Source: Glaucostegus cemiculus (taxonomy: Eukaryota). From it: DNA of 64,000 nt. The position numbers and the translations under genes are program-made. The notes under the pieces were generated by a model that worked only from the letters and a program-made list of their open reading frames with translations, ran no database searches and had not been told where the DNA came from. Shown here piece by piece: positions 18,545 through 58,519 of the stretch (position 1 is its first letter; each line of letters opens with the position of its first letter). The stretch covers positions 33,356,001-33,420,000 of the forward strand of contig CDPCPM010000180.1 of NCBI GenBank assembly GCA_976551045.1, in the 5' to 3' direction.

Positions 18545-18678
18545 TCAGGTAGACATATCGAGGAGATAGTTCTTGAGGAAAGTAGGCAGTGGTAAGTGGT
18601 GGATACTGTGAAGCCGAGAGACACCCAAACATCTTCGGATGTGAAGGCGACAGGCATTTTGAAGTAGTCTGGGATTTT
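18545..18678 (-). CDS. ASB1-like protein, coding exon 3 (SOCS box)
   Basis: Acceptor tgtgttttgcag, phase 1 compatible. Manual translation KNPRLLQNACRLHIRRCLGVSRLHSIHHLPLPTFLKNYLLDMST* shows a BC box and the LPLP Cul5 box. Confidence 0.9.
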
Positions 18679-18884
18679 CTGCAAAACACAACACTTTATG
18701 AATGAGACCTAAATAAAGTGAGTTACACTGAGGGGGAGGAGAACAGAGGTTAAACAGCTATTTAAAATTATTCTCCACCTCCCCACAAATTCTCTGTCTT
18801 GATTGTGCTGATGTATTTTAATAGAGGTCTTTGGAAAATGACCGATACCTGTGTGAAGCAAAAAACAAAATGCTGGAGGATCTC

Positions 18885-19830
18885 AAATTTGCAGATGATA
18901 CCACCTTGGTAGGCTGTATCTCAACAATGATGAGTCCAGGTACAGGAAGGAGATAGAGAGCTTAGTGGCATGGTGTCATGACCACAACCTTTCCCTCAAT
19001 GTCAACAAAACAAAAGAGCTGGTCATTGACTTCAGGAAAGGGGGTGGTGTACATGCACCGGTCTACATCAATGGTGCTGAGGTCAAGAGGGTTGAGAGCT
19101 TCAAGTTCCTGGGAGTGAACATCACCAATAGCCTGTCTTGGTCAAATCACATAGAGGCCACATGCCATGACCTAGAAAGTTCACCAGCGCCTCTACTTCC
19201 TCAGAACGCTAAAGAAATTTGGCATGTCTGCTTTGACACTCACCAACTTTTATCAATGGCCCATAGAAAGCATCCTATCTGGATGCATCATGGCTTGGTA
19301 CAGCAACTGCTCTGCCCAGGACCATAAGAAACCGCAGAGAGTGGTGGACACAACCCTGCACATCACAGAAACCAGCCTCCCCTCCTTGGACTCTGTCTTT
19401 ACCTCTTGCTGCCCTGATAAAGTGGTCAGCATAATCAAAGACCTCACCTACCCAGGTCATTCTCTCTTCTCTCCTCTTCCATCAGGTAGAAGCTACAGGA
19501 GCCTGAGGGCACATACCACCAGGATTAAGGTCAGCTTCTACCTCACTGTGATAAGACTATTGAACAATTCCCTTATACAATGAGATGGCCTGTGACCTCA
19601 TGATCTACCTTGTGACCTTGCACTTTGTCTACACTTTCTCTGTAGCTGTGACACTTTACTCTGTACTGTTATTGTTTTTACCTGTACTACCTCAATGCAC
19701 TCTGTACTAACTCAATGTAACTGCGCTGTGTAATGAATTGACCCGTATGATCAGTATGCGGTAAGTTTTCACTGCACCTCGATACAAGTGACAATAATAA
19801 ACCAATACCAATAATAAACTAATACCAATA
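18885..19830 (+). mobile_element. Rex1/Babar LINE 3' part
   Basis: WCHDHNLSLNVNKTKELVIDFRK, ESILSGCIMAWY; tail aataaaccaataccaat. Confidence 0.9.
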
Positions 19831-20799
19831 TTGGCTAACATACGCTATTTTTTTAGGTAAGGAGACCAAATTTTTACAGGTGTGATCACGCTAAAGCCCT
19901 GTATAATTGTCATATTTCGCTCCTGTTCTCAAACCCTCTTATAATAAAGTCCAAAGCACCATTACCTTCCTAATTAACCACTGCTGGCTTTCAGTAACTT
20001 TAGTTAATGTCCTTGAGAATATCAACATTCCACAAACTCTCACTGTTTAATAAATATTCGACTCTTCTGTTTTCCCTACAGAATGGCGTAACCCCATATT
20101 TTCCATGGTGTATGCCAGCTGTTGTGCTCTTTCCCACTCCTTCAGCTTGTCTACACCCCCTTGAAGCCTCTTTGCAGCCTCATCACTACCCATATTCCCT
20201 CTTTGTTCAATCATCAGCAAACTTGGAAATCACTGATAAAGTTTGTGAATGGTTGTTACCCAAGCACATATCCCCGTAGCACTTGGTAGCCACAGCCTGT
20301 CAAGCCTAGGTGTGCCCATTTATTCCTACTCTGTTTTCAACCAGCCTCAAGTCACTTTCAGACAGCACTCACCACCCACTGATTTCTTCTGGTCCTGAAA
20401 TGATTTTGCCCTGGCGTTTACAGCCTTGTCATTGTGTAACTCTGTTCTGGTTTGTCTGAGCATTGGCATATCTGCAGTTTCTTTGGAAAGGTTGCCTTGA
20501 CGAGTCAGGCAGAAGCAGGGACCCAGGAAGAGGTTAGAGGGTTATGGACCAAACGCAGGCAAATGGGACTAGCTCAGGTAGGCATCATGGACAAGTTGGG
20601 CTGAAAGGTCTGTTCCTGCGCTGTATGATTCTAACTGTATAACTGTATGACTTTATGCTGTGTGCTCAGGTTGAATGACTTGGCATGTCATTTCCCTCAG
20701 CTCCCATTTGGGGACAGCTTTGTCTTTATGCAGTAGTTTAAGAGGAGGTGTTTATGTGGCTCTTAGCCCCACTGATAACTTGTCAACTCTTGTTTGATT

Positions 20800-20990
20800 G
20801 TTTTTCCCCCACTTTTCTACACTTAGGGGCAAGTTAGTGCAGTCAGTTAATTTTCAGCATATCTTTAGGATGTGGGAGGAATCTGGAGCATCTGAGAGAA
20901 ACCCACATGGTCACAGAGAGAACATGCAACCTCCACACAGACAGCACCTGAGGTCAGGATTGAACCCAGGTTGCTGGAGCTGTGAGCCCC
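20800..20990 (-). mobile_element. HE1-like SINE
   Basis: Reverse complement of the 15465 family. Confidence 0.7.
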
Positions 20991-21326
20991 TGTGCTTCTC
21001 TGCTGGTGCTTTACTGGGAGGTGCAGGGATGATGTTTCCTCTTCTTGTACTGTCTAGGACCAAGAGTCACAGTGTCAAAATAAGGGGTTGCCATTCTACT
21101 CAGAATGGGAAGAAATTTCTGTACCCTGAAGGTAGTGAATCTTTGGATTATTCCACCCAAAGAGCTGTGGAGACTCAGTCACTGAGTATATTCATTTCAG
21201 AGAGCAATAGATTCTGACTAGTAAGGGAAATGGGGTTAGTAATGGAAAAATCAACCATGTAAACCAAGTAAAAGATCAGCCAGGGTCTTAATGAATGAGG
21301 AGAATGATGGGCTGAATGGTCTCTTT

Positions 21327-21460
21327 TGTCCTGGCTAATATTAATCCCTCAAACATACTGTGGCAGCTTACGGTGCACAAATATCCTGGGGCATTTCCTG
21401 CATTACAACAGTGATTACACCCCTAAAGCACTTTGGGACATCTTGGAAGTTCTATATAAG
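21327..21460 (+). mobile_element. DeuSINE-like 3' fragment
   Basis: tgtcctggctaatattaatccctcaa...cattacaacagtgattacac...aaagcactttgggac resembles the recalled Deu-domain SINE end. Confidence 0.55.
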
Positions 21461-21499
21461 TGGTAGACTTTTAAAAGTTTGCTAGCAGTGTAATCATAC

Positions 21500-21686
21500 T
21501 TTTAGATCTTTCAAAAAACAGTGCACAAGGGTTCTTGGAGAACATCTGACTCTCTCCGGGAGTTTGGTTGTAACTGAATAAGCTCAAGTCTGCTCCAAAT
21601 TCCACTAACAGCTTTGCATAGTCTTCACTGCAGTTCATCTTCACTACTGCATCCAGGAGGTTTGAAGCTGCATGAGGCATAGATTC
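21500..21686 (-). CDS. ASB1-like protein, coding exon 2
   Basis: Acceptor ttatattgtag, phase 0. Translates ESMPHAASNLLDAVVKMNCSEDYAKLLVEFGADLSL...FFERSK (ASB1 has LLVEFGANL). Donor A|gtatga, phase 1. Confidence 0.88.
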
Positions 21687-22526
21687 CTACAATATAACAG
21701 AGAAAAGTATCATTAAGTAATTCAGTGACAGAAGAGGAAAAATCTTCTTTTACTATATTCAACCTTTCAAATGTCATCAGCAGAAAATAGTTCAATAAAA
21801 TGCATTCATGTACTGAGCTGGATGTGCCTGTACCCCATCTGCACATATCTTAATAAGAGATAACCATATTTGTACATGCCACAGTTAATCTATACCTATT
21901 TTCTTGCACAGGTCATTGTGACACTACAATGAACCATGGTTGAACATAAAAGGTCCCTCCCCATCCATAACCAGTCCCTTGCAGTCCAGAGAATACTTTA
22001 CATTCATCTTGTTCTGGTCCCTTGTAGATCAAATATTTTCATTGTTCTACCATAGCAGCCCTGCCTTTAGCTATTTTGGGTCTAATCTGTGACATTTTCT
22101 CCCTAAAGTTCCCTCAAACTCTCTCTCTCTTTCTCTCTGTCTCATCTCTCTCTGCCTTATTAGCCCAGATTTTGGACACCTTTTCTAATTTCTCATAGTA
22201 AGATGAGATAAGAATACTGGCTATTGAAAGAACACCTTTTCTCTGACAATGACCCAATGAACAGAACTTCACATAGCATCCCCTCTTTTTTTAATCATTT
22301 TCTTACAATGGCACAGAAGGAGGCCATTCAGCCCATCAGCTCCATGCCAGGTTGCATTAGTTTCAATCCCCCCTCTTATTTTCCTGCACCCTTGCAACTT
22401 ATTTCTTCTCACATATGCCAATCAATTCTCCTTCATTTGTTCTGGCATTCACCTCTTGTGAGGGGTAGGTCTTAGTAGCCAATTAACAAACCACTAGTCC
22501 TTTGGAATGTGGGAGGAAATTGGAAT

Positions 22527-23528
22527 ACCATAGAACCATAGAACAATACAGCACAAAACAGGCCCTTTGGCCCACCAAGTTGTGCTGTCCTTGAAAGTCA
22601 CACGATCTAACTCTTTCCTCCCACATATCCCTCTATTCCACATTCCTCCATATGCCTATCTAACAATCTCTTGAACCTGTCCAACGTATCTGCCTCCACC
22701 ACCACCCCAGGCAGCACATTCCATGTGCCAACCACTCTCTGGATGAAAAATTTCCCTCTGACATCTCCCTTGAACCTTCCACCCAATATCTTAAAGCCAT
22801 GCGCTGTCGTCTTGAGCATCTGTGCTCTGGGCAAGAGGTGCTGGCTGTCAACTCTATCTATTCCTCTCAATATCTTATACACCTCTATCAAGTCCCCTCT
22901 CATCCTCCTCCTCTCCAACGAGTAAAGCCCTAGCACCTTAAGCCTCTCTTCATATTTCATACCCTCTAATCCAGGCATCATCCTGGTAAATGGCCTCTGT
23001 ACCCTCTCCAACACCTCCACATCTTTCCTATAATGCGGCAACCAGAATTGAACACAATACCCTAAGTGCAGTCTAACTAGAGTTTTGTAAAGCAGCATCA
23101 TCTCCTCTCGGCTCTTGAACTCAATCCCACGATTTATAAAAGCTAACATCCCATAAGCCTTCTTAACTGTCCTATCCACCTGCGAGGCAACTTTGAGTGA
23201 ACTCTGGATATGAATCCCCAGATCCCTCTGCTCCTCTACACTGCCAAGTACCTTGCCATTTACCTTGCACTCTGCCCTGGAGTTTGTCCTACCAAAGTGC
23301 ATCACCTCACACTTCTCCGGATTAAACTCCATCTGCCCAGCTCTGCATCCTATCAATATCCTTCTGTAAGCTCCAACAGTCCTCCACACTATCCACCACA
23401 CCACTGATCTTGGTGTCATCCGCAAACTTACCAACCCATCCTTCCACCCTTTCATCTAAGTCATCTATAAATATAACAAAGAGTAGAGGTCCCAGAACCG
23501 ATCCCTGCGGGACACCACTAGTCACAGC
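22527..23528 (-). mobile_element. Relatively young 5'-truncated CR1 LINE nested in a SINE
   Basis: [14 protein letters not shown]...KFADDTK plus a long open C-terminal frame; (TTCTATGG) tail; SINE halves at 22470-22526 and 23530-23640. Confidence 0.92.
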
Positions 23529-24319
23529 AAGAGTGCCCATAGGAAAGCCACATAGTCACAGAGAGAACATGTAACACCTGCACACAGGGCACCTGATGTC
23601 AGGATGGAACCTGGAACTGTGAAGCAACTGCACTAACTGCTTCTACCACAGTGTCAACAGTACAATTTTGCTCATTCACTGAAGCCAATTTTCAAAAGGA
23701 GTAGCAATATCTCCTCTTTCTGAAAAATGTGAGAGGGTAATATTCCAAGTAAAATTCTTTCATTGGGAAGACTTATAAATATCTGGGGCTTCAAAATTCC
23801 AAAGGAACTAAACCAGTTTACTGCTGCCATCTGTCTAGCTAAAATTCACACATTGCCAAATGTGGGCCAATTGATCCCAGAAAGTGTGTTCGACCTTACC
23901 TGTGGGAGCTTTTTGGAGATGCAGCTTCTTTGCAGTCATTTCTTTCTTCATCATTTGGAGATACCAACCATTCTTTAATTTACTTCTTCAGAGGATGTAG
24001 ACACAGCTGGAAATGTCAGCATTTATTGCTCATCTCTAAATGCCCCTGAACCAAAGAGGTGGGTGCAGGGTCACATATTGACCAGACGGAGTAAATATGA
24101 CAGATTCCCATCCTTGAACGATATTGTTCAATGGATGGGTTTTTTGAATGATCTAGTAGTTTACCTTTAATAAGGTTAGTCTCCTTTCTTCAGTTTGAGT
24201 GAAGGATCTTAAACCTGAAACATTAACTATTTCTCTTTTCATGGATGCTCTCTGACCTGCTGGTTCTTCCAGCAATTTCTGTTTTAATTTCAGATTTGCA
24301 GTTTTTTTAATATTTTAAT

Positions 24320-24475
24320 CGAAAACTGATTTGGTTGCCAAAAACAAACTTTCAATCCAGATTTAATTAATTTAAATTCTCCAGCTGCGAAGGTGGGATT
24401 TGAACTATCGCCACTGGATCAGCGGTTCTAACTCCAACTGCTAGTCCAGTAACTCAGTCACGTTGCCACCTTACC
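24320..24475 (-). mobile_element. tRNA-derived SINE head (same family as 33830)
   Basis: gttcaaatcccacc...gctggagaatttaaat on -. Confidence 0.6.
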
Positions 24476-24984
24476 CTGCCAGCAGAGCAGGCTGTGAAAG
24501 AGCTGGTATGGCCTTATCATTTCCATGCAAGCTTGCTAATAATTCCATCTCTGAGATGGAATCAACGTCAGGTATTTTTTGGAGGCTGGAAGTTCTCTGC
24601 CAATTTTCGGATAGATTAGGAGCTTCAGAATTTAGAGCCCATAGGACTGTAACATTTTACAGCACTCTAGAAATTACTTAGGATTACTGCATCTGTTACT
24701 GGCTCTCTGTGGGCAATCTACCAAATTTCTATGCCCTTACCCTTTCTCTACACTTTTTTAACTGGGAGACTGGGATTAATCTGAGCCAGTATAGGCTTGA
24801 TGGGCCAAATAGCCTCCAACATTGTCAAAAAATATAAAGAAGTCCTAATTTCAAATATTTATCTGCAGTACTTCCTTATAAAGTGGATTATGGATTCTGT
24901 TTTTAACACTCCAAAAAAACTTTGTAACATGTTTCTCCCAACATCTCTTCCTTTCTATACATAAGATAAATATAATAATAAGTA

Positions 24985-25640
24985 CATAGTTTCCTGAAAG
25001 TGGCAAGAGCAGACAAAGTGGTAAGGAAGGTGTATAGTATGTTCGCCTTCATCAGCCAAGCCATTGACTACAAGAGTTGGGATGCCGTGTTACCGTTCTA
25101 CAAATTGTTGGTTAGGCCACACTTGGAGTATTGTGTGCTGTTATGGTTGTCACACTACAGGAAGGATGTAATTAAGCCTAAGAGGGTGCAGAAAATATTC
25201 ATAAGGATGTTGCCCGGTCTGGAGGGCTTGAGTTATATGGAGAAACTGGACAGGCTGGGACTGTTTTCCCTAGAACAAAGATGGCTGAGATGTGGCCTTA
25301 TTGAGGTTTATAAAATCAAAAGGGGCATATAGATAAAGCGGATGATATCAGAGTCTTTTTCCCAGGGTAAGGGAGTCTAAAACTATAAGGCATAGGTTTA
25401 AAGTGAGAGGCGAAAGACTTAAAGGGGACCTGTGAGGCAGTTTTTTCACACAAGCTTCCAAAGGAGGAGGTGGAGGCAGGTACAAATAGAGTGATTAAAA
25501 ACATTTTGACAGCTACATGTATAGTAAAGGTGAAGAGGGATATGGGCCAAATGCAGGCAAGTGGGATTCACATAGATAGGCATCTTAATCAAAGTTGGGC
25601 TGAAGGGCCTGTTTTCATGCTATTTAGCTCTATGAATCTA
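24985..25640 (+). mobile_element. CR1 3' fragment
   Basis: LVRPHLEYCV and LFSLEQRWLR motifs; tail ctctatgaatcta. Confidence 0.9.
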
Positions 25641-25656
25641 TACACAAAACACTTAC

Positions 25657-26328
25657 CCCTCCAATGAAAAAATTCATCCTCTGGCATTTTCTCTGTTCCT
25701 TACAGTTGAAGTTTGGATTTGCACCACTTTGAAGAAGAAATTTGAAACAGTCCAGTTTATTATGTAAGGCACTCATAAGCAATGGGGTTTTGGTCAATGA
25801 ATTCTCAAATGGCTTTGGAGACAAGTGATCTGCATAATTCACATCTCCCCCGCATCTTATGAGCTCCTTGATGATCTCCACATTTCCATTCTGGGAAGCA
25901 AAAACTAATGGTGAGCATTTACTACCAGCCCTCCCATTGGGGTTGGCACCTCCTTTCAGTAGAATTTGTACACAGTTTAAGTTATTTTCTAATATGGCAA
26001 AGTAGAGCGCACACTCACCACCATCATTCAGGTAGCCTACATCAGCACCTTGTTGAATAAGGAACTTAACACACTCATCATGTCCCCCTATGACAGCGAA
26101 CAGCAGTGGTGTGCAAGGTAGCACCATTTCAGACCGGTTCAAATGCCTGCTGATCTGTGATTTCAAGCCCCAATCCTCAATTAAGAGTTTAAGTGTTTTT
26201 AGATCACCTCTGAAGGCAATGTCATACAATGATTCCGGCATGTTCTTGGATACATCGTTGTTGGTTAACCAAGTTAGCAGCTTCTTGTGCATTCTTGCAA
26301 TGGGATTTGAAGAATTGCCAAGCTTCAT
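25657..26328 (-). CDS. ASB1-like ankyrin repeat and SOCS box protein, coding exon 1 (about 5-6 ankyrin repeats)
   Basis: 224 codons with LPCTPLLFAVIGGHDECVKFLIQQGADV, GANPNG and CFKFLLQSGANPNFNC, colinear with ASB1 (LPCTPL...GANPDFNC). Donor GGG|gtaagt, phase 0; likely acceptor ttctctttttag just upstream of 26389. Confidence 0.88.
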
Positions 26329-28365
26329 TTAGTAATCTGTGATGTTCTCTGTTTTCCTTAGCATGTTTCATGGAGCATTTCTAAAACTCCTAAAAAGAGA
26401 ACAAAACGTTTTTCATTGATTCTTTTTTCCTGAAATGTTACCTTTAAGTTTTGTAATAAAGAAACAGAGCCCTATAACAAATATAGGTGGGAATTTCCAC
26501 TGAATTCCTCTCATTCTGCCACCAACATCACTGAAACTGTGGTAGTAGCCCTGTTCGTTCATGGAATTAAGTAGTTTCAAAGTACAACTAAACATGAGTC
26601 ATTTGTCCCTCAGGATAAGCTCCTGCAGCCATTCCACATTTTAAAGAACTAAATTTTTGATTTTCACAGCAATAATAAAATTAATAAGATTACCAGCAAA
26701 AGCGGCCTTCTTTAAATTTTTCCCTGTGATACCTTGGACTATTACAAATTGGAGATGGTTTCAAATTCATTTGACTCCAACATGCCAACCTTTCAACTTT
26801 AGTATCAGCAAAAATCACAGTGAATCCATAACATCTCAGACATGGAGAAAGTATCATGGACAAATCTCCAAAAAGGATATTTCTCTGAGTGGGGTTACAG
26901 GGTGGAGTTACTCATTGTCATATATAATTGATTCAAGGCAGAGATAACCACCAGCAAGAGGGATTTGACAATGAGCAGAATCTTAATGATGCTGTCACAA
27001 AAATCAAATGAGGCAAAAGTGATCTGAAGATGGAACGCAAGCTTCCACCTGACGGCATCTGCTGAGATAAGGCCTGGAGCCAGTGAGTGTGGGAGGCTGA
27101 CTTAGAGCGGGAGAAACATCATTTCAAGAGCTCCTTCTTTCATTGAGGAATTTTTAAGTTTCTTTCCAGGACCTTCCATGTGTTCGCCATAGGAACAGAT
27201 GGGCAATCCTTTGGGGACCCAGGCTGTGCTACCCCACTACCTGTTCCATGTGGCTGGCAGGGTAAGAATGGTAAGCAGTGCTTGTCCTTGTGGAGCACCT
27301 GCATCAGACAAGTGCAGTGCATCTAATGCCTTAAATGTTCTATTATTTCCCATTGTTTCAGAAGAGATCAGGAGAAAAGAATACAGCTCATGGCGAAATA
27401 TCAACATCTTGCTGTCAAATCCTTACATTTCATATTTCACTTGCAATCAAGGAAGCTAAATAAATACAGTAATATCAGCAGCTCCTATTTTTCATGTTTC
27501 TTTATGACATAGAAGGCCATTGAGTCTATGCCAACTCTCAGGGGAATCCCATTCCCTCATTTACTACTCTGTAAGCTATTCTCTATTTTTTGCTAAATTT
27601 TATGAAAAGGAATTTTATTCTATATCTCAAATTTTGGGCAGTGATTTGTGAACTCTGTAAGGACAAACTTTCATGACCCAAATGGCAGCATGAGGGGGTC
27701 ACCTGCATTGAAAACAATAGGATACATTCTGGCCACAAACAACTGGCAGTTTAGAGTTGAATTTTGCAATCTATTCTCTATATTTCTTAAATATACTTCA
27801 TTATTAGATTCAACTTTTCCACCTATTCCCTGAAAGATCAAAACTTACTGTTTCTCCTGGGAACTGAGTATAAATTCTTGTTTTGAACGCTGAGGAGAAA
27901 ATCCGGTTAAACGGTATCATAGTTGGCCCTCTGTGAAGTCACAATGATGCAGTAACATTACCACAAAAAACAATGAATTAAAATCCTTAGAATTACTTTC
28001 TGAAACACATTATTACAGACTGAACATTGCAATTATCTTTGTAACAACATCATGTTTTAAAAGGACTTTTAAAGAATGATAACATGTCTATTCCAAAGTT
28101 GCTGCATTTCATTTTTCAGTAATTGGGTTAATGGTGTCACAAGGGCCTTGAAATCTATGAAGATCCTCCTTGATTCAGGTACAAAATACTTTTATTTTTT
28201 TCAGGATGTGCATGTTGCTGGCAAGACTGGCATTTATTTATTGCTTATGCCAGAAAGATGCCTTCTTGAACCACTGCAGTCCTGCTGGTGAGGGTGCTGC
28301 TGCAGTACCATTGGGGAGGTGCCTACCGTTCTAACCATTGTGACAATGAAGAAACACGTGATGTA

Positions 28366-31695: not shown

Positions 31696-31756
31696 CTCAC
31701 TGATTGCGGTCTGTTTGTCAGAAAGTCAAGGATCCAGTTGCAGAGGGAGATGTTGA

Positions 31757-36486: not shown

Positions 36487-36812
36487 TCAAACTGTTGTTA
36501 CCCTCATTACCACTTCAGCAGAACTGTTGTCATCATACTCCTCATCTTGGGGTCTGAATCGGGTGAGCAAATGTAACAAAGTGTAGCTGCAGTGAAATGG
36601 TTCAGACATTAACCTGGTGGAGCCAACAGGCCTCCGTGTTCTGAACTGATTCAGAGATGACCAAAGGGTCTGATTAACTGAGCTTTCAGCGTGGTTGCTG
36701 TTTACTTCTAGGTCTTTTGCTTTATCATAATTTAACACGGTCCAGTGCAGATTAACAGCTCTCCAGCGTTTAAACACTCGATAAATTGCTGCTCCTTCGT
36801 GAATGATCAGTC
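36487..36812 (-). CDS. MARCHF11: MARCHF11-like, exon 4 (cytoplasmic tail with YxxL and PDZ-binding motif)
   Basis: Acceptor tttccacag, phase 1. GLIIHEGAAIYRVFKRWRAVNLHWTVLNYDK...YTLL...EVVMRVTTV*. Spliced CDS is 1035 nt. Confidence 0.93.
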
Positions 36813-37819
36813 CTGTGGAAACAGTATCAGATTATCAAAGCGAATATGATCACAGATCCTCCTTGCATTGTGTACATGTCACAGGTCTCTATTAATAATT
36901 GTGTCAGAGGGAGTAGCCTGTTTCCTGTTAGAGGACACCCCATCCCCTCAACCTTTACAACAGCTGTACGACACATCCTGGGTTACTGTTATTTGACTAG
37001 GAATTGAGCAGACTGCAGAAACTGAATCTGCAATCTTTTATCAGAATGTTTGATGTACTGGGTTCCAATCATTTTTTCACTAAATATAAGGCTATTTAAC
37101 AACTTATCAACTTTATTCTATGGATTAGATTCTGCAAGTCACTGGGCATGCACAATATTAAATATCAATGTGACCTTTTAAGTGGCATGTAAAAGGATTC
37201 ATATTGTTAACATTAAAATAAAAATATTTGATTCCTAAACTACAACTTTTATAATATACAGTATATATATAAAATCTTCAATCAGCAGAAATTTTATTTT
37301 TAAAAATTTAACATCATAAAATAATACTTAACTTACTGGTTACCGAGGCTAAAGGGAAAAGTGACAAATAACACCATGAATAGAACTGGGTAGAATTAAG
37401 TTCTATGCTTTATTGCTATATGGATTGTACATGTGTGGCTAAAATTTATAGGGACCAGTAAAAGTAGCTTTAAGTTAATGAATGTGGATTCTGTGCATGG
37501 AGTCCAGCATCTAAAACCTTCTGCAAATTAGGAGGCCACAGCAGAGCTAAAGGATTCTACCACCAATGAAAAGAACCTTATATGTTTCAGTAAGATCACC
37601 CCTCATTCTTCTATACTCCAGTATATAGTCCCAACCTGTTTAGCCTCTCTTGATAGAATCCTCTCATCACAGGAATTAGCCTGATGAATCTTCTTTTACT
37701 GCCTCCAGTGTTACCATACCCTTTCTTAGACTAGTGGTCTGGAACAACACATGTCTCCAGTTAAATTGTACCTTTATAGCTATAATACTAGCACCTATCC
37801 AACAATGTGCAAGCTATTG

Positions 37820-38260
37820 CTGTGCTGGAAATCTGAATAAGACAAAGATACAGAAAATGCTGGGGATTTGGGCAGGCAACATCTGTGAAGAGAAAACCAA
37901 GTTAACATTTCAGGTAAATTAGCTTTCATTAGAACTAAGGAAAGGTCAAAGTTGCAGAGAAAGTGGGGAGGGACAGAGAGATCAAAAGAGAAGGTCTGTG
38001 AAAAGGTGGAGATCTGAGAGGCAGCGTTGATAGTGCTGGCTGAGAAAAGGTGGAAAACCTGGTGAATAAGAAAAGACATAAATGAGAGAAGATGAATGAC
38101 ATCTTAAGATATCTGAAGAGGAAAGAGGGAGAAAGAATGCATGTGGAAAATGTGAGATGCAAGACTGAAAAGGCTGATTTGTCTGAAGTTGCTGAGTTCA
38201 CTGTTGAGACCTGAAGGCTATAATGTGTCTTATTTGAAGGTGAGGTGCCATGCATTATGT
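37820..38260 (-). mobile_element. Penelope-like element terminal fragment
   Basis: On -: cagccttcaggtctcaac...aacttcaga-type ORF end, pyrimidine tract, decayed CT(A)ATGA...GAAA motif and cagatgttgcctgc tail. Confidence 0.55.
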
Positions 38261-38727
38261 TGATATTTCATTGAAACAGCATACATACAGAAGTACACAA
38301 GCAAACTGGAGCAGCGGTGGGCCACTTGGCCCCTTGGAGAGATGGGTGACTGCCAGCAGGGACGGTCAGGTAGTGTTGAAGTCTCCTGTAGCTGTTCACT
38401 TCTCTGACAAGTACACAATTACCAAACTTCAGTTCCACTTCCACTATGTTTTTGCCCATCCTTTGATCAACCAATATTCTCTTATAATTAGAGGGAGGGA
38501 AGTACCACTCAAGGACAAAAGGGGGAATTTATGCCTGGAGCTAGAGGAAATGGGCGAGGTACTAAATTAAACCAGCAAAGTGCTGGATTTGTGGATGAAT
38601 GCTATTAAACTTCAGTGACATTTTGCTCTCTGCTATTTTTATGCAGCATTTAGTTTCATCAGTGGTAGTTCATAGACTTTAACATGCTGGCAAAAATATG
38701 CATTCAGTTCTCTTGCATTCAACCTAC

Positions 38728-38920
38728 CTATGCAAACAAGGTCCATAAATCCATACATCCCATAGCAGATCTGAAATAAGATGTCTCTTCTCTGCCAGAC
38801 TGCAGCAGGACTGAAGGCTGACCATAAAAGCCAGGTCACACTTGCTATCAGGAAAAGGCAACCAAGGATCACTGCTATGATTTGAACCTTCTCAACCAAG
38901 GTCACTGTGATAGGCTCCCA
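38728..38920 (-). CDS. MARCHF11: MARCHF11-like, exon 3 (two TM helices)
   Basis: [38 protein letters not shown]...[12 protein letters not shown]; acceptor cttcctgtag, donor G|gtaggt; 193 nt. Confidence 0.93.
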
Positions 38921-40783
38921 CTACAGGAAGAAAAGAAAGCATATTAGATTAAAACAGAGAGAATCATCAAATAAAACTTAGTCTTTTTTAAGCAATACAT
39001 GTGCTATAAGTTACCATCTGCAAAAATTCAGATGCACTTTACACTTGCAACAAATAATTATATGTATATAGTTAGCAAAGTTCTGTAATGCAGATATGGC
39101 AAACACTCTCCCCACACAAGTACTGTATCACAAATTACTGTCAACCACTTCCTCCTTCCACAGATCTCAATTCCTGATTCTCACTGCCAATCTCACTCAA
39201 TATTTCTCCATTGGCCTGGATTTTGAAATCAGCCAGGAGTTGACAGCACTGCCAACCTTGTTAATTTAAAAAATTGCCTTTTCCTTTGGTGATCCTTCCA
39301 CTGTGAATTTAGAGAAAATGATCAACAGAGAAGGACAGGGTGAGATTAAGAGGGCAAAAAGTAGAGATTATATAGTAGGAGCTAGGAAGTTAGTAGAACT
39401 CCCATTGTGCAATCTTCTGAACCACAAGATTGATCTTGGTGGATGTGGAGAACCGCATTTTGCTGCAAGCCAGACCACAACATATCCACAACACATCAAT
39501 GGCCATGTAGACGAATGCAAGGTTAGAATATATAAAAATAAAACAGTATGTGCAGTATTAATTTTTACTTAATTATATCCAATTATCTCCCATCTTGTAA
39601 ACTGATTCACCTAAAGAATAAACTTATTTCCTCCATCTTCTATGTAATGCACTTAGAAATCAATCAGTACTTAATTCAAAGTTATTGCAAGTGTATCTTC
39701 ATCTCCTGATTTCCTTATACCTTTGCGAATTTTACTCTGAAGTAAAGATTTCCTTCTCTTTTCCCTTAAATACATTACTTCACAATTACCAAACTTCAGT
39801 TTCACTTCCACTACATTTTTACCCATCCTTTGATCAACCAGTAGTCTCATGTAATTTCACACATTTTTCTCAGAGTTCACTATGTTCCTTAATTTGGTTT
39901 TGTTACCCTCCCTCCAGGCCCAAGGCTAATATATTGAGACAAGATCATAAGAGCACAACCCTCAGTATAAACTGCCAATCTGAGAAACATCATTCCTGAA
40001 ATTCGACAGGTGTTTTCCTGGTCTTCCAAAATAACTTTGACATATGGTAGAAAGAGAATATTTGTTGGCATCCTATCATCTGTGGGAACAAACTATAATT
40101 TACAACAGTACATACATGACAATATTATATTTAATAGGTAAATGACCACATTTCAAAGTGCAGTACAAGTTCCTATTCTCTGGAAAACTCCAGAATACGT
40201 GTCTACATTTACTTGTGTATTGTTTTACCTGCAGGGGTACCTGCACTAGCTACAGGGGTCTTCAAAGTAATGTACTCCAGTCATCCATGTCTCTGCCTGC
40301 CCATATTTATCCCTGCTGCGTTTATGCCTTGCAGGCTTCATCCACTATGACTTCACTGGGCTGTTCTCAATTTTATAGCGATTTTACTAATACCCTCCTA
40401 AATATTCAGCAAAAAACTAGCAAGACCCCCAAGGAAAATTTGGTTGAAACATCTGGGGTCTTCTTTTCACCTCTGATCATATCTTCTAACATCATAGAAA
40501 CTTGCCCACATTTGCCACATAACTATGTAGTAAGCACAAATTTGCCTTTGCAGTTCTGCCATTGTTAACTTGCCCACCTAAGCTGTCCTGATCTCGATAG
40601 CAGCAGGGTTGTCCGGTGGTGGGCCAGAACAAACCCCACCCATGAAACAGCAGAAACAGACTAACAACTAGAAAACCACACTGGTATTCAGAATATTGAA
40701 GAAATATTAAGCATCAAAATATAAAGTTCAACAAAAACTGAAGGGCATAAATCACTAAAGAATACTTCTAACATTTATCTGGA

Positions 40784-40860
40784 CTGATGAAGGGTCCTGA
40801 CCCAAACATTGACTGTCCATTTCCCCCCACAGATGCTGCCTGACCTGCTGAGTTCCTTTA
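40784..40860 (+). ncRNA. Degenerate Penelope-type hammerhead ribozyme relic
   Basis: CTGATGA-A-GGGTC-CT-GACCC-AAAC: intact first core box and stem II, but the G of GAAA is missing. Confidence 0.6.
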
Positions 40861-42644
40861 CTTTAAAAGAAAGCTGTATATTATACAGAATTTATGTCTT
40901 CAGTGACAATGAATACTGCTACTATTGGCCAACCCCTCATGTTCCTGGTAATCAATGTTCAGAAACTTGCGTGGACAGGTACTTAATTTCTGCAACAGAA
41001 AGAGTATGTCTGAGGCTGAATATTTTGAGTTCATAAAGATTTTCCATCATCTACAAGACACTTCTCAGGGTTGCTGAAAAAGATACCCTGCTTGCTTTGT
41101 TGAGTGCAACTCCAAACCCAATAAAAAAATGTTGTCAACTCCCCTCCACAAGTGAAGCTCCAAGCTTGAGTTTGTTCAACATAAAGCAGCATGTCTGATC
41201 GCCACCCCATCAACTGCCTCGCAGGACTGTGACATCCCAGTGCACCATTCACAAAATGAATGGCAGAAACTTAACCTCAGCAGTGCTATGAAAAGCCACA
41301 ACTTCAGCACCAGAAAGATAAGGACAGCAATCACCTGCTTACTCTATTCTTGCAAGGTAACCAATTCGAGGTCACACTCTACTCTTAGATGGAATTACAT
41401 ATTGCTGTTCCTGTGTGGTCTTTTAAAGAACTACCTGCACTGTCGGAGTTCCTTCATGATAAGCAGGAAGGTTGCTCTTTACTACCCTGTATGGCAATAA
41501 GGGATTAGTCAAATACACTGACCACACAGCAACACTCACAGGAGTGGTAAAAAATACAGTAGATTCCCAATTCCCGTTACCTTCCCCATACTTATCACCT
41601 CCAATATTCACCCAAGCACAAATCTTGAAAACAAGAAACAAGGAAAGCAAATGCTGAACATTTTTATACATCCAGTCACTAGTCCTTAGTGCTCATTTTC
41701 CATTTGCCTTTGCCAGCCCTGCTACTTCCATGCAATGCTACCTGTGACTACAGTCAAGCTGCTCAGTGACTGCTCCCTTCTATTCAGCGCAGCATTGCTC
41801 AGCTCTGTGGCTCAGTCACCTCTGTTTGGTTTGTGTCATCTAACCAACAGCAGTCTGGGCAAACTGGCTCACAGACAAGAGTGAAGACACCATCAGAGTG
41901 GCAGTGAAAATTCATGAATCCTGTCAAGCTGATAAACCGCAATAGATTTGTAGTCAACTGTGCCAACACCATCCCAAGACAGGACCTCTGTATTTCCTAT
42001 AATTTGCTGGAGAATTGATTGGTAAAGAGTTGTAACATCGTCAAATCCCCTGCCAATATGACAGAAATGGTGAGCTTCCAGTATAGTGGCTGGCTTCTGC
42101 CTTATTGCAATGGAAATTGAAATGTTAGCTGTCATATACTGACCAGCGATTGGGCCCACAGTTGTTGACATGGGATGGGCCACTACTTTCATACTGAAAA
42201 TGATGGGTTCAAGGTTCTGTGCAGAGCCTTATACAAAGTCAGAGCTGGACTCCCAGAACATTTCCTGTAGACTTTCAGTCAGATCTGACTGCACTTCAGG
42301 CACCTCAACACTCATGTACATCTCCTTTCATCTTTAGGGTACAGCATCATGGTCCTCATCTGAGATCTCCTTTTCAGAACTAGTGTGAAATCTTGCCTTC
42401 CTCTCAGGTGCTGACACTTGAGCTACCATATCTCCATTATATGGGTAGAGGCCATGTGTGCCTGATGATTCACCACGTGCCGATCAGGTATCTAAGTTAT
42501 ACAGTGTTGTGAATGGAGTGGCAGCATTTGAATTGGCATTGTGAACATCAGGTGCAGTGGTATGTTGCCACTTTCTTCACAGTCTTGCTAGTCAGCAGCC
42601 TAGACCTGGTCAAGGAGAGTTCACCCAGAAAAGGGAAGGCACAA

Positions 42645-42985
42645 GCTTGTAGAGCCACAGCCTCACAACACCAGAGATTCAGTTTCAGTCCTGACCAGAT
42701 GCTGTGTGCAGTTTGTGTTTTCTCCTTGTGACTGCGTAGGTTTCTTCAGGGTGCTCCGGCTTCTTCCAATATGCCAAAGATATGCAGGTTGGTAGGTTAA
42801 ATGACCACTGCAAATTGCCCCCAAAGTATTGGTGAGTGGTAGAATCCTGGGGGAGTTGATGAGAATATGGGGATAATTTAAAAATGGTATTAAAATAGGA
42901 TCAATGCAAATGGATGGTTGTTGGTCAGCATTGGCTCAATTGGCTGAAGGGCCTGTTTCTATGCTGTATCTCTCTATGACTCTAT
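42645..42985 (+). mobile_element. HE1-like SINE with CR1-type tail
   Basis: V-like domain followed by gggcctgtttctatgctgtatctctctatgactct. Confidence 0.75.
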
Positions 42986-43469
42986 AAAGGGTATGGATAT
43001 GTGAGGGGAGGGCAAGGGAGAAGAGCTTAAGCCACCTGGATCTTGCAAAGAAGAGACTGTATGATGATGGGGAAAGTGGGATGAGGTGGAAAAGATATGA
43101 CCATACCTCCATCTTCCATAGTTAGACAACTGAAACTGTGTACAAAATGAAATACAGTGAATTGGTGAATCACTTGAATGTCAGAAAGGAGTGGTAGTTT
43201 ATAGAAATTGTTGGTAGCCAAGTGATGGAGACGTAATGTGTGGGCCAATGGGCCTACCGGGGAAGTTGTTGGTAGGTGGGATTTGTTGATGTGTTTGCTG
43301 GCTTTCAACACATGGTAATTAAAACACTGTGATTATTTGACTCAAAATCCCACAAAACACTGCGGGCAAATACCAGATAACTTAGGTCTTGGCTGCAGAC
43401 CATAATATGAGACTACAGATTGATGCCAATATCTCAGATTTTGCCTTTATTCTATCTGCATCCCATCCC

Positions 43470-45122
43470 ATCAGGTTGGAAATGGACAGAATTTGCTCAT
43501 GCCTGAGCAAGGACCTGGATCCGCTGCAGTTTACCTACCGACACAACAGGCCTACAGCGGACACAATCTCATTGACTCTCCACTCTTCTTTGGAGCACCT
43601 AAACAGCAGCAAAACATATTTCAGGCTGCTGCTTATCAATTACAGCTCAGCATATAACACCATCATCCCCTCAGTATTATTCATGAAGCTTCTAAACCTG
43701 AGCCTGCACCTCCCTCTGCAACTGGATCCTCGACTTCCTCATCGGGAGACCACAGTCAGTGCAGATCAGTGACAGCATCTCCCTCTCACTGACAATCAAC
43801 ACAGGTGCACTTCAAGGATGTGTGCTTAGCCCACTGCTCTACTCTCTCTACACATGGCTGTGTGGCTAAGCACAACTCAAATGCCATCTATAAATTCATA
43901 GATGACACCACAGTTGTTAGTAAAATCTCATATGGTGACAAAGAGGCATACAGGAGTGAGGCTATCATATGATATTGAAACAACAACCTCACATTCAACA
44001 TCAGTAAGACCAAGGAATTGATTGTGGGCTTCAGGAAGGAGAAGCTAGGAGAACACACACCAGTCTACATTGAGGGGTCAGTGGTGGAAAGGGTGAGCAG
44101 CTTTAAGTTTCTGGGCATCAACATCTCAGAGGATCTGTCCTGGCCCAATACATTGATGCAATCACAAAGAAGGCACGGCAACAGCTCTGCTTCGTAAGGA
44201 GTTTGATGAGATTTGGTATGTTACCAAAGACTTTAACAAATTTCTATAGATGTACGGTGGAGAGCATTCTGACTGGTTGCACCACAGCCTGGTATGGAGG
44301 CTTCAATGCACAGGATTGTAAGAGGCTGCAGTGGGTTGTAAACTCAGCCAGCTCTATCACAGGCACAACCCTCCCCACCATTGAGGACATCTTCAAGAAG
44401 CAGTGCCTCAAGAAGTTAGCATCCATCATTAAGGACCCTCACCATCCGAGATATGCCCTCTTCTTGTTACTACCATCAGGGAGGAGGTACAGGAGCTTGA
44501 AGACCCACACTCAATGATTCAGAAACAGCTTCTGTCACAATGTTGATTGAAGAGCAAGCTCACAGAGAACCCAAAAGCAGCACACTGGTACAAGACTGGA
44601 GTCAGGATACTTCCTCAGGACAAAACACAGGCAGCAACTGGAAGGAAATCTTGCCTCAGAGATCTGAGTAGTAATCCCAACACAAACTGAATCTTCAAGC
44701 AAGACTAGAGAACGCAGGACGGCTCTAGAGTAGACCACTCTAAGCAGCAAGGAGCCAAAGTATACCCGAAGGTTGACCAATACTCTGGCAACTAGTGCTA
44801 CGAAAACCCAGGTACTTATGCTAGGGCCCTGATGGGGCTCAGGTGTATGTCATTATGCAATCAGTCCACATGGAATCCATGTGCTGTACAACGAGGCATC
44901 CAAGGAGCCAAATCAAGGGCCAGTACTCAGAATCATGACAGCTTCTTGCTCTCCGCCATCAGATTTCTGAACGATCCTTGAACACTACTTCATTATTCCT
45001 TTTCTTTTGCATAATTTATTTATTTTGTAATTTATAGTAATTTTAAGTCTTTGCACTGTACACCTGCTGCAAAACAACAAATTTCACATCATAGGGCAGT
45101 GATAATAAATCTGAGTCTGATT
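43470..45122 (+). mobile_element. Rex1/Babar LINE (RT to 3' tail) interrupted by a solo LTR
   Basis: LDPLQFTYRHNR, YSSAYNTI, ESILTGCTTAWYG; tail aataaatctgagtctgat. Confidence 0.9.
44533..44940 (-). mobile_element. Solo LTR, 408 bp, with 5-bp target site duplication
   Basis: TGTCA...TGACA ends; GCTTC at 44528-44532 and 44941-44945; the host LINE reads through when the insert is removed. Orientation is tentative. Confidence 0.85.
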
Positions 45123-45554
45123 CCATACCCTACCATCCTTTCCCATCCACTAACCCCATATTCATTTTTCCCTCATTCCTCCATTTTGTCATTTATCTCC
45201 CAAGTTTTACATACTTCCTGATCCCAACCTGTAGTATTTGCCTCTGCCTTACTTCCCCTCACCTATTCTCTCTTCATCCCAACTCCTTCTCCCTATCCCT
45301 TCGTGATTTGCTGCACCATCTTCAGATCATCTGTTAGGTCTAAGATCCAACTGAGTACTCAAAGCCATGTGAGAATAATTATTTGTTTTTATTTCCACTC
45401 CCCCTAAGATAATCTGCCAAGGAATGCCAAGGGAATGCTGACAAAGTATAATCACTGCAATATTTTTATTCTTATTAGATCAGCTTATGTCAATACAAAA
45501 ATTAAAAAATATATATAACAATATGTAAGTGCCATATATATCATGATCTCCAAG

Positions 45555-45900
45555 TCATAGAGATACAGCACAGAGCTATGCCCTTCAGCCCATCGAGTCC
45601 ATGGCGACATTAGCCACCCATCTACATCAATCCTACTTTAATTCTATTTTGTAATTCTCCCCACATTCACATCAACTCCACCCAGATTCCACCACATACC
45701 TACGCTCTAGAGGCAATTTACAGGGGTCAATTAACCTACCAACCTGAATGATTTTGACATGTGGAAGGAAACTGGAGGAAACCCAGGCAATCACAGGGAG
45801 AACATGCAAACTCCACACAGACAGAACCAGAGGTCAGGATTGAACTTGGGCATCTGGAGCTGGGAGGCAGTGGCTCAACTAGCTGCACCTTCCAGTACTG
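45555..45900 (-). mobile_element. HE1-like SINE
   Basis: Reverse complement of the 42645 family. Confidence 0.75.
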
Positions 45901-47156
45901 CTTTTCCTTTCTTCCCCCACCAACCCCATGCCCACACACTGATGCTTGTCTGCAGTACCATTAATAGCACCATATTGTGCCCTGCTTCTGAATTTTGCTT
46001 ACTGTCCACTGACTTCAGTGGAATTGAAATTTTGGAAGCAGAATACAATATGCTTCTACTATATTATGTTATATTCAGTGCAAGTAACTAGGGATGAATT
46101 TCTAGGCATGTCTTTACCCTTTCCATCAGCTCTAACACCATCTTTTCCTTAACCCATTTCACCCATAGTGCTGAACTTCCATCTGATTTCTTCTGACCAC
46201 CAGCACTGAGGTTCTCCCTTGGTCCTGGTCAAGTTATTCCTTGTTTTCTCAATCAGAATATTCAAAGATTAGTCTTCTGTCTGCAAAGTCTCCAGGAATG
46301 ATTTGGTTATCTTAGAGTATGAATTGGAAAATGCCTACAATGTCACTGAAATGTTGTGCACACTGAATATGATACACAACTGTAAAGGATTTAGGGACAT
46401 GTCCCATAGTTCTCAAAGAAGTTCTGACATATCCACCACATATATCTGACTCCATGAAGGTTGGAATCATATTCCAGTGTGGCACATGCACAACTGATGG
46501 TGTCTGTAACCACTACATTAGGAAATAATCCACAACAATAAGGCTGAAGAATGCTAAAAATGGGCTAGGGAATGTTTACAACCACGTTTAAATTAGGACA
46601 CAAACATACTGAGTCTCCAGAGATTGAATACCCCCATTCTTCATGCTGTTGGGCTATAGCAGTGAAAATGAAGGAAATACTCCACTGGAGTGTAATGTTT
46701 TTAAGCAAGTGACTGCTTATTGAAGGAGGCCTTTGTACAAGAAATTGCCTTTTCAAATAACTTTGTGTCCTTTATTCCAAGGCTTTGTCTACTGCATCTT
46801 CTTCTGTGAGATCACACCACTGAGGATGAAGGTGGGATGACTTGTTAGGAAGTTGAGGACTACTGAAAGATGCACAAGGACAAAAAGAATAAAATGAAAA
46901 TGGTTATACAGATATGAAATGTCATTATGGATGTGCTGAATATATCAAATTGCTTAAAAGTCTTGCAAAGCAAATCATTGAAATTCATCTCACAAAGTTG
47001 AGGCTGTAATGTGTGAAGTTCTTAAGATAACCCTGCAAAAAAAAAAACTCACCAGAATCAGTCAAGTTAGAAGGGGAATCAAACCCCGGCTATACTGTTT
47101 GGGCTGGCTTCATTGTTGCTCTGGTCTCAGTCTGCAGTCCTGATTGGACCTTTGTT

Positions 47157-47450
47157 TGGCACAGTAGCATAGCGGTTAGCATAATGCTTTACAGCGCCAG
47201 TGACCTGGGTTCAAATCCAGCCACTGTCTGTAAGGAGTTTGTATGTCCTCCCCATGTCTGTGTGGGTCTCCTCTGGGTGCTTCAGTTTCCTCCCACATTC
47301 CAAAGACATACAGGTTAGGAAGTTATGGGCATGCTATGTAGGCACTGGAAGCATGGTGATACTTGCAGGCTGTCCCCCAAAATCACTACACAAAAGATGT
47401 ATTTCATTGTGTGTTTTGATGTACATGTGACTAATAAAGATCTTATCTTT
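47157..47450 (+). mobile_element. tRNA-derived SINE
   Basis: A box tagcatagcggttag, B box ggttcaaatcc, tail aataaagatcttatc. Confidence 0.75.
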
Positions 47451-48899
47451 CTTAGTGGACACATTTTTTTTTATTTTTCCCATGGCTAAATGGTAGAAAT
47501 TGTCTTGAATACAAAATTACATTTGTCTGGAGTTGTACTAATTTTATATAACTTGTTATATTTGCAGCAACCCAGCTCTAATGTGAGGTTTTAGTTCTCC
47601 TGTTGTTATTCTCAATATCTGCAGCAAGATGTTAGAAACTCCAGTTTCTTCCTTATCTGTATTCAAGGACTTTTTTGTTTTGCACTGGTTAAGTGGGTCT
47701 CAAATGCAGTTGGCTTGACTACATTTTTTTTACTAAGTGAATTCTTATTGACAGTTTTCTTTCCTCCCATTGACACCTATAAAGCACATGCTGCTGTCAT
47801 CATAGTGGGCTCAGTGGTGAAAACAAAGGGGTTTGGTCTTCATTTTCTTCCCAGCCCCCTTTTTAAATTGGTGGAAAATCGGATCTTTGTAAAAGAGGTT
47901 TTCTCCACTTTTGCATAACGTGGCAGATGAAGAAAAGACAGCAAATGTGGCATTTTGATTAAAACAAGAGAAATAAGATTTTTGATTAAAAGTTGTAAAC
48001 GGAGAGAAATATGACCATTCTTCAAGGACTACTTGCAAATCAACAACTACAATTATAACAATGGTGTATGCTGATGGTTTATATCTGATGGCTAATAACT
48101 TGAACAAAGTTTGAATTTCCATCCATAATTTCAAGATCCTGTAAAGTGTTTTATAATTAGTCATTTTTCAACAAAAGCTGTTGATTTTCTCAGCCTTCTG
48201 TATCTACAACGTGGGCTTTTGGTTGCTCAGCACTGAATGGGAAGTGTGATCCTGAGAAGTACAGTGCTCCAGGAGCCTGCATCTCAAGAAATTTCAGACT
48301 CTTTGACTTTTCCCACCAGTTTCAACACAGCAAGGAACTCACAGCTCTTCCCAGCTCAGGTCCCACTTGAAATGCCATCAGCATCTTAATGACACCAGAG
48401 GATATCGATTACTACAGAGTTGTGGTTGCAAAATAACATAGTTTGAGAACTAAATACTCCTGGATACTTAGCCTCTAGAAAGGACAGGCAAAATGTAAAA
48501 AAGGAGAGGTAGCCACTGAATAAAAAGGCAAAGAATCTTAGTAAAGAAACAGAAATAGTATTAGATTGGGTAGAAGTAAGAAACAGCAAGTGGCAGCAAA
48601 CAATATTGGGAATTGCCCATAGCCTCCAAACAAAAGCGATAATGTAGGTCATTTTATAAATAAGGAAACTGACACAAAAGTGCAAGACAAGTAATATAAT
48701 AATCACGAATGTATACAAGATCATTTTCTAGATCAGTATGTTGTGGAACAGTCTATGGAACAGGCTAATGTAGATACTGTATTGTGCAATGAAGATGGAT
48801 TAATTAATTGTATGGCTGGGACCTGTAAGGAAAAAACATCATATGATATAACTTTAGATAAAGACTGAATATGATTTAATTATATTTGAAATTGAAGTG

Positions 48900-49200
48900 G
48901 TGCACCAGGTAATGCTGCTACCTCATAACCCCAGCAATCTGGGTTCAATCCAGACCTCCAGTGTATTGAGTTTGGACATCCCTGTGACTACATGTGTTTC
49001 CCCAGGTGCTCCCAGACCACAAAGATGTGTGGGTTGGTAGGTTATTTTGCCTGGTGTAGGTGGGTGGTAGGAGAATCAGGGTGGAGTTGATAGACATGTA
49101 AGGGAGAAGTGGATACGGGGAAATAGGTGGGATAATGTTTTGCTCCAAGAGCTAGCATAGACTTGATGGGCCAAATGGCCTCCTATGTTGTTAGTAAATT
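48900..49200 (+). mobile_element. HE1-like SINE
   Basis: gggttcaatcc B box and family core. Confidence 0.7.
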
Positions 49201-49209
49201 TGAGATAAA

Positions 49210-56680: not shown

Positions 56681-56836
56681 CTGGCATGGTCTTTTCATTC
56701 TTATTGCTACCACATGGTATCTGTAACAGCAAATCTCACAGCTCCATGACCCTCTTTCACTAATCCATTTCAAAAGGCATGGCTGATGGGAGTAGCGTAC
56801 TGAGCCATCACATCGGCAGGGACTCAGCAATTCACC
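56681..56836 (-). CDS. MARCHF11: MARCHF11-like, exon 2 (RING-CH)
   Basis: [52 protein letters not shown]; ag/gt boundaries; 156 nt, phase 0 at both ends. Confidence 0.93.
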
Positions 56837-57147
56837 CTTGGAGGTACAAAAGGAAACCAAAGTTTATTGAAGGTGTAACAAATTACAACATGGTTAACAT
56901 CAGCCAGTATAAATAGTACAGATGACCACATGGACCAAACATATCTTCAGATTTCATTTTATTCTCAAAGTATGCTTTAGAACATGCTTTGTGGATAATG
57001 TTTGTGTCACTTTCATTGCATACTTTTGTTCCCACCGAGTTTTGAAGACTGGTAGAATGCAAGCAGTTAAATCCTTTTAATTGACATACAAGTGTGAAGT
57101 ACCTTTTAGCTTAAACACAAACGCTGTAAGTGCTAGGAATCTACAAT

Positions 57148-57345
57148 AATAACAGAAAATGCTGCAAATACTCAGTAGGCCAGGGAAAATGTGTAGAGAC
57201 AGAAACAGAATTAATATTTCTAGTCAATAAGGTTTCACCAGAGCTGTTCTGATGAAAGCTATCCACCCGAAATATTATCTCTGTTTCTGTCCCAACATAA
57301 TGCCGTCTGACCTGATGAGTATGTCCAGTGTTTTTGATTTTATTT
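57148..57345. repeat. Imperfect palindrome of Penelope-type terminal repeats
   Basis: gacagaaacaga..taatatttc on the left pairs with gaaatatta..tctgtttctgtc on the right; centre near 57245. Confidence 0.7.
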
Positions 57346-58390: not shown

Positions 58391-58519
58391 ATACGTTTGA
58401 ATAAAATCTCTATGTTGGGTCCTGCTGGCTGTTCGTTCTCAATATATCCTAAAAAATACTTACATAGTTACTCTGCCGCATCATATTCTGTCTGGGTAGA
58501 CTACGACCCAAAGGCATGA

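Follow-up and report, generated by a model that had tools for sequence, protein, structure and literature searches.

A probable third lineage of the ASB1/ASB12 group in Glaucostegus cemiculus, shared with the chimaera Callorhinchus milii

We analysed a 64,000-nucleotide stretch of the genome of Glaucostegus cemiculus (contig CDPCPM010000180.1 of assembly GCA_976551045.1, positions 33,356,001 to 33,420,000), here called the window, in whose coordinates all positions are given. It carries a minus-strand gene of the ASB1 family at 18545..26389, referred to as the window gene and its product as the window protein. The analysis indicates, with a probability that we put at about 0.72, an intact and ancient third member of the ASB1/ASB12 group, orthologous to a Callorhinchus milii protein databased as 'ASB1-like' and probably serving an Elongin BC-cullin-RING ubiquitin ligase as its substrate receptor.

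Spliced together, the three coding exons of the window gene give 993 nt, made up of 330 codons plus a single terminal stop, with no internal stop and no frameshift, and both introns are bounded by GT donors and AG acceptors, all four splice sites being canonical. A previous, sequence-only reading had proposed three GT-AG-bounded exons of compatible phase encoding 330 residues, and this structure is borne out both by the sequence and by junctions shared with the chimaera gene. The ankyrin repeats and SOCS box that it described are found again as Pfam matches, Ank in four stretches of exon 1 (E 1.1e-28) and SOCS_box in exon 3 (E 5e-14, 52.7 bits at a cut-off of 23.5), while exon 2 searched alone against Pfam gave no match. 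Five clear ankyrin repeats and a probable sixth can be recognised, and repeats 1-5 lie in exon 1, the one large exon in which that reading had placed nearly all of them. The alignment agrees with that reading on the landmarks LPCTPL, GAxPxFNC and LLVEFGA, which are common to the retrieved ASB1 sequences, and on the absence of the ASB1 segments VWCCGW and VDVKGQTALY.

The 5' end is less sharply defined, the limit at 26389 being a candidate acceptor only. An in-frame stop immediately precedes the ATG at 26328, and the 61 bases ahead of this ATG hold three upstream ATGs opening frames of 6, 49 and 11 codons. The 49-codon frame overlaps the main start out of frame; the 11-codon frame is in frame and terminates at the stop just ahead of ATG 26328. 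Such upstream ATGs could damp translation. Translation may alternatively start at ATG 26292, which has a better start context, aligns with the N-terminus of the chimaera protein and would give 318 residues. The contig of a related organism (run X1, 26880 region) carries about 88 extra bases immediately upstream of this candidate acceptor at 26389.

Modelled with AlphaFold2 on a 35-row alignment, exon 1 has five helix-pair repeats (mean predicted local distance difference test score 83, predicted template modelling score 0.80). A fold search with this model matched ankyrin structures, among them ASB9 (28% identity) and ASB11 (22%). The likeness to ASB9 in complex with Elongin B/C (PDB 3zkj, 3zng, 6v9h; E 2e-8, root-mean-square deviation 2.3) extends to the SOCS box, which matches that of exon 3 (E 6e-6), and exon 3 finds its best PDB matches in the ASB9 and ASB7 SOCS boxes; a PDB sequence search had no ASB among its best 60 of 447 matches. 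At 28% identity ASB9 is nevertheless a member of another subfamily, and the creatine kinase substrates are its own. PMC3355856 gives the BC box consensus as (S,T,P)LXXX(C,S,A)XXX-hydrophobic and the Cul5 box rule as LP-hydrophobic-P. The LPLP Cul5 box of the window protein is also present in the chimaera protein.

A search with exon 1 returned six proteins from 88 candidates, of which three were Callorhinchus 'ASB1-like' models, the best at 55% identity. The Callorhinchus protein, entered as 'ankyrin repeat and SOCS box protein 1-like' in four models (P0001, P0002, P0005 and P0183), shares 176 of 318 residues with the window protein. P0001 is 55% identical over exon 1, and P0005 matches exons 1, 2 and 3 at 61, 62 and 74%, unbroken over both junctions, which makes the Callorhinchus protein a likely orthologue. 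At the position of intron 1, where P0005 splices, P0001 and P0002 run into the intron; all four models appear partial or mis-spliced, and no correct full-length one was seen among them. DNA contigs of two other organisms contain part of exon 1, and one of them, from a related species, covers both exon 1 and exon 3 at about 95%. The literature searches found no paper on the Callorhinchus protein, none under the names ASB1-like or ASB12-like, and none on the window gene itself; data accompanying the catshark and whale-shark papers may be relevant to its distribution. The earlier description of the gene as uncharacterised stands for the literature searched, but the chimaera orthologue is already databased under an automatic name.

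The position of the gene relative to ASB1 and ASB12 was examined with two profile searches. The first (best 120 of 264 passing matches, from 8000 candidates) returned bony-vertebrate ASB1, teleost ASB12 and two invertebrate 'ASB1-like' proteins, and none of the named ASB subfamilies 2-11 and 13-18 was among these best 120. The second used a profile of three early-branching bony-fish ASB1 proteins, and among its best 120 of 2667 matches were three canonical elasmobranch ASB1 rows, from Chiloscyllium, Mobula and Leucoraja. Pairwise identity among these three is 84-88%, and each of them is 35-36% identical to the window protein; coelacanth ASB1 is 71% identical to shark ASB1 and 66% to skate ASB1. 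Over all rows the window protein has 34-39% identity to ASB1 (17 rows) and 28-30% to ASB12 (5 rows). We built a tree of 28 hand-chosen rows (the window protein, 17 ASB1, 5 ASB12, 3 outgroup and 2 chimaera rows), in which the ASB12 labels of P0202 and P0205 and the outgroup label of P0207 were assigned in this analysis. Window and chimaera proteins formed one clade (support 100/99), ASB1 another (100/98) and ASB12 a third (100/100), with a 98/98 separation from the outgroup; the program issued a warning about long branches that meet. The shark, ray and skate ASB1 proteins nest inside the ASB1 clade, with the window and chimaera proteins outside it. In approximately unbiased (AU) tests on 15 rows, grouping the window clade with shark and skate ASB1 was rejected (p-AU 0.007), as was the window protein as sister of skate ASB1 (5e-51), and in a 12-row tree without the long window branch the chimaera protein still fell outside ASB1. 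These results support the earlier claim of a separate paralogue rather than the ASB1 orthologue. As the three clades are separate, the window gene would be a third lineage older than the split between sharks and bony vertebrates, and since the chimaera has the same divergent form, that form should predate the elasmobranchs. Assignment of the window protein to ASB12 was considered and rejected, on the 28-30% identity to the five ASB12 rows and on an ASB12 clade that leaves it out, no cartilaginous-fish ASB12 sequence being included in that clade.

That the frame has been kept for a long time is clear from comparison with the chimaera. The two proteins differ at 142 of 318 compared residues with the frame still open, yet in neutral simulations the frame stayed open in only 22 of 1000 runs at 10% substitution and in 0 of 1000 at 40%, which argues clearly for long-term selection. 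The conservation is uneven. Over repeats 2-5 we picked 52 scaffold and 28 face positions by ankyrin convention. Between window and chimaera proteins 38/52 scaffold and 9/28 face positions are identical (Fisher p=0.0007), between window and shark ASB1 35/52 and 6/28, and between window and ASB12 36/52 and 1/28. Shark and coelacanth ASB1, in contrast, share 43/52 scaffold and 26/28 face positions, and face identity among ASB1 pairs is 26-27 of 28. The contrast of the window-chimaera pair with the shark-coelacanth ASB1 pair is thus strong for the face (p=4e-6) and not significant for the scaffold (p=0.34). Because the face has changed, with 6/28 positions identical to shark ASB1, we infer that the window protein no longer binds the substrates of ASB1 and has different ones.

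According to PMC3779351, the SOCS box in ASB proteins binds Elongin B/C, Cul5 and Rbx2, and substrates lie in a concave groove that inner helices and hairpins form. By analogy, the SOCS box of the window protein would dock Elongin BC and Cul5-Rbx2 into a predicted complex, and its concave ankyrin groove would bind the proteins to be ubiquitylated. The lineage would have parted from ASB1 and ASB12 earlier than sharks did from bony vertebrates, presumably after an early genome duplication and with a later loss in bony vertebrates. Expression may be restricted, testis being a guess from the relatives Asb1, Asb12 and MARCH11. According to PMC11743861 and PMC8899140, mouse Asb1 and Asb12 are testis-enriched, and the former source gives SQOR as an ASB1 substrate in mouse testis.

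Several observations weigh against this reading. In the mouse testis study of ASB1 (PMC11743861), ELOB co-precipitated CUL2 and not CUL5, and the cullin partner is uncertain for that reason. The first position of the BC box, S/T/P in the consensus, is Leu in the window protein and Ile in the chimaera protein. The binding face is unconserved even between these two orthologues, which fits relaxed constraint just as well as it does new substrates. In the AU test neither a sister position to ASB1 (p-AU 0.35) nor one to ASB12 (p-AU 0.23) was rejected, and the trees held no other ASB subfamily, ASB12 being represented by teleosts and one unlabelled record. No elasmobranch orthologue was among the 88 candidates or the best 120 of 264 matches, in a collection where elasmobranch proteins are present. 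A relative-rate test found the window protein faster than the chimaera protein with two of four outgroups (p 0.02 and 0.016). Exon 1 appears barely slower than its flanks in a related species, with an estimated 22-39 changes in 733 bases. Finally, RNA reads from a related species gave a depth of 0 on the bins that contain exons 1 and 2 in three runs out of three (18-24% of each run read, tissue not stated); the reads were placed at 88% likeness across 19.3 kb, a placement swamped by repeats.

Among the other explanations, the one that survives best, if rather unlikely in our view, makes the gene a segmental copy or retro-copy of ASB12 instead of a genome-duplication sister of ASB1. One argument for it lies in the exon borders. 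Those of ASB1 were inferred from the breakpoints of 29 ASB1 isoform models picked as likely aberrant, which cluster at residues 15-17, 63-64, 164-166 and 293-294. The borders at 63-64 and 164-166 are absent in the window gene, both positions lying inside exon 1, and the ASB12 record P0205 likewise runs unbroken through the ankyrin region up to the last intron position, so that the large exon would be common to the window gene and ASB12. The position of intron 2 coincides with the last ASB1 breakpoint and with the C-terminus of P0205, a read-through. ASB1 and the window protein are alike in length, repeat layout, last intron position and a SOCS box with LP-hydrophobic-P; they differ in the two missing internal borders, in one border of the window gene at which the ASB1 isoforms examined have no breakpoint, in a separate clade at 34-39% identity, and in neighbourhood. 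ASB12 shares the large ankyrin exon and the last intron, as judged from the single record P0205, but the LPLP motif is missing in the ASB12 rows. The unrejected AU topology is compatible with a copy of ASB12. On the other hand, identity to ASB1 exceeds that to ASB12, and having one large exon may simply be ancestral.

The neighbourhood also speaks, indirectly, against the copy. We take the mammalian neighbourhoods to be MARCHF11-ZNF622-RETREG1 and ASB1-TRAF3IP1. Supplement rows of PMC10115646 place skate Retreg1-1 and Hoxa11 on Leri_2C and Traf3ip1 and Hoxd11 on Leri_7C. Skate Asb1 is in the same id block as Traf3ip1/Hoxd11, and the gene labelled Asb12-1 sits in another block, with ids adjoining Fgf16, Arhgef9-2 and Thoc2; these rows thus assign Asb1 (together with HoxD), Asb12-1 and the Znf622/Retreg1 region (together with HoxA) to three separate id blocks or chromosomes. 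The skate gene ids are out of positional order, and closeness of ids is a chromosome-level hint only. Linked through the neighbourhoods assumed above, the skate region corresponding to that of the window gene is apparently on the HoxA chromosome and ASB1 on the HoxD chromosome, which fits a genome-duplication pair of the window gene and ASB1 on these two chromosomes. A search of hagfish supplements gave no match.

So far the gene has been seen only in cartilaginous fishes. It is unlikely, a little more so than the ASB12 copy, that this distribution is an artefact and that orthologues exist in bony vertebrates under the automatic names 'ASB12-like' or 'ASB1-like'. The searches need words in common and did not pick up even the copies of elasmobranchs, and the top Atlas clusters for the chimaera protein are chordate and named ASB12-like (154 and 57 members) and ASB1 (51), as far as names alone can tell. 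Among the best 120 of 264 matches, however, the named non-chimaera vertebrate rows are ASB1 or ASB12 at 37-45%, and two retrieved teleost 'ASB12-like' proteins are 71% identical to ASB12b and cluster with ASB12. There was no second ASB1-like locus within the 64-kb window. In a metagenome scan one stretch (L001) out of 41 had a hit, of a generic ankyrin kind, and in an exhaustive search of representatives the 150 listed matches were all long multi-ankyrin proteins and uninformative. A search over sequencing runs had no RNA data set among the holders it listed, and we give this no weight as evidence.

It is tempting to speculate further that the window gene is a genome-duplication sister of ASB1 lost in bony vertebrates, whose groove has been positively selected while that of ASB1 was frozen, and that it serves as a germ-line or immune adaptor tracking a fast-changing target; we regard this as improbable. 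Marginally more doubtful still is that a real paralogue is now decaying in elasmobranchs, with selection relaxed, the face drifting and the open frame a late survivor. The faster rate in the relative-rate test and a longer window branch (1.17 against 0.19 for the chimaera in the 28-row tree) would agree with this, as would the failure to retrieve an annotated elasmobranch orthologue, the missing exon 1-2 reads, and the weak context of the first ATG behind its three upstream ATGs. Of the 31-mers sampled from exon 1, a related species carries 27%, fitting a divergence of about 4%, near that of the whole contig piece (63 differences in 1338 bases). The sequence-only reading had named the RNA junctions 25657/21686 and 21500/18678 for confirmation, and neither gained support in the three related-species runs (15 of 5071 joints listed). 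In the same runs the last exon of the neighbouring MARCH gene is also near zero, and the word-share estimate of 22 to 39 changes does not separate moderate constraint from none. Slow evolution of the chimaera's genome would also yield the branch asymmetry. Against decay stand the 993 nt without stop or frameshift, the four canonical splice sites, a scaffold as conserved as that of ASB1, and a SOCS box 74% identical to the chimaera's. The preferred reading of an intact third lineage leaves room for a recent relaxation of selection, which may have occurred. That the gene is simply the extremely accelerated ASB1 orthologue of this species can hardly be maintained: ASB1 is the most similar named family and no canonical Callorhinchus ASB1 was among the best 120 of 2667 matches, but elasmobranch ASB1 proteins resemble each other far more than the window protein, the AU tests reject the placement, and the exon structure is different.

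The features of the window gene and of its upstream neighbour are listed in Table 1. The neighbour, a RING-CH (MARCH) ligase gene on the same strand, is tentatively named MARCHF11, and an Atlas query with its last exon gave no usable match. Its first exon is CpG-rich (GC content 0.66 and CpG observed/expected 0.94 at 60001-61000), and the window thus holds two ubiquitin-ligase genes in tandem, about 10 kb apart.

Table 1. Positions of the window gene, its motifs and the neighbouring gene in the 64,000-nt window
Feature	Position	Strand	Description and basis
Presumed 5' untranslated part of exon 1	26329..26389	minus	Follows candidate AG acceptor; from sequence
Coding exon 1	26328-25657 (672 nt, 224 codons)	minus	N-terminus and ankyrin repeats 1-5; open frame, GT donor, Pfam Ank
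Intron 1	21687..25656	minus	Phase 0; GT-AG; contains repeat-derived DNA (self-comparison); same place in chimaera gene
Coding exon 2	21686-21500 (187 nt)	minus	Probable degenerate sixth ankyrin repeat and linker; AG/GT
Intron 2	18679..21499	minus	Phase 1; GT-AG
Coding exon 3	18678-18545 (134 nt)	minus	SOCS box and stop
BC box, residues 291-300	18638..18667	minus	L-x3-C-x3-hydrophobic retained; sequence against PMC3355856 consensus
Cul5 box LPLP, residues 315-318	18584..18595	minus	Fits LP-hydrophobic-P (PMC3355856)
RING-CH (MARCH) ligase gene, four exons	36487..60799	minus	Upstream neighbour on same strand; exon borders and Pfam RINGv E 3.1e-11
MARCH neighbour exons	about 60799-60440, 56836-56681, 38920-38731, 36814-36487	minus	Exon borders

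Elsewhere in the window, about 920 bases at 31281-32197 match their own reverse complement at 79% (one repeat family in two inverted copies), and remnants resembling long interspersed nuclear elements, with long open frames, occur at 22610-23455 (minus strand), 28369-29043 (plus strand) and many other places. These repeat families are heavily covered by related-species RNA reads. Positions 3440-3588 are an assembly gap of 149 N. The Mobula ASB1 model P0339 has a 39-residue insert at residues 184-222, which is similar to a repeat family with several copies in the window (6 weak matches, E 3e-4 to 0.04). The insert is probably a repeat, either mispredicted or exonised, located where ASB1 has an exon border.

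The ASB family has been counted as ASB1-18, from mammals (PMC11743861, PMC3779351). The window gene would represent an unnamed third lineage of the ASB1/ASB12 group, one whose mechanism is expected to be ordinary and whose binding face is unusually prone to change. It is still one further paralogue of a well-known family and brings no new mechanism, and the retention of old duplicates by cartilaginous fishes is a familiar pattern. A third lineage in this group would nevertheless add at least one ASB gene to those of the ancestral jawed vertebrate, and would mean that a separate gene is concealed by the 'ASB1-like' labels given automatically in cartilaginous fishes. With a frozen face in ASB1, a fast-changing one here and equally conserved scaffolds, the two would offer a clean case for substrate change in an adaptor and, if the groove of the window protein has indeed been under positive selection, a natural pair for studying substrate switching of E3 adaptors.

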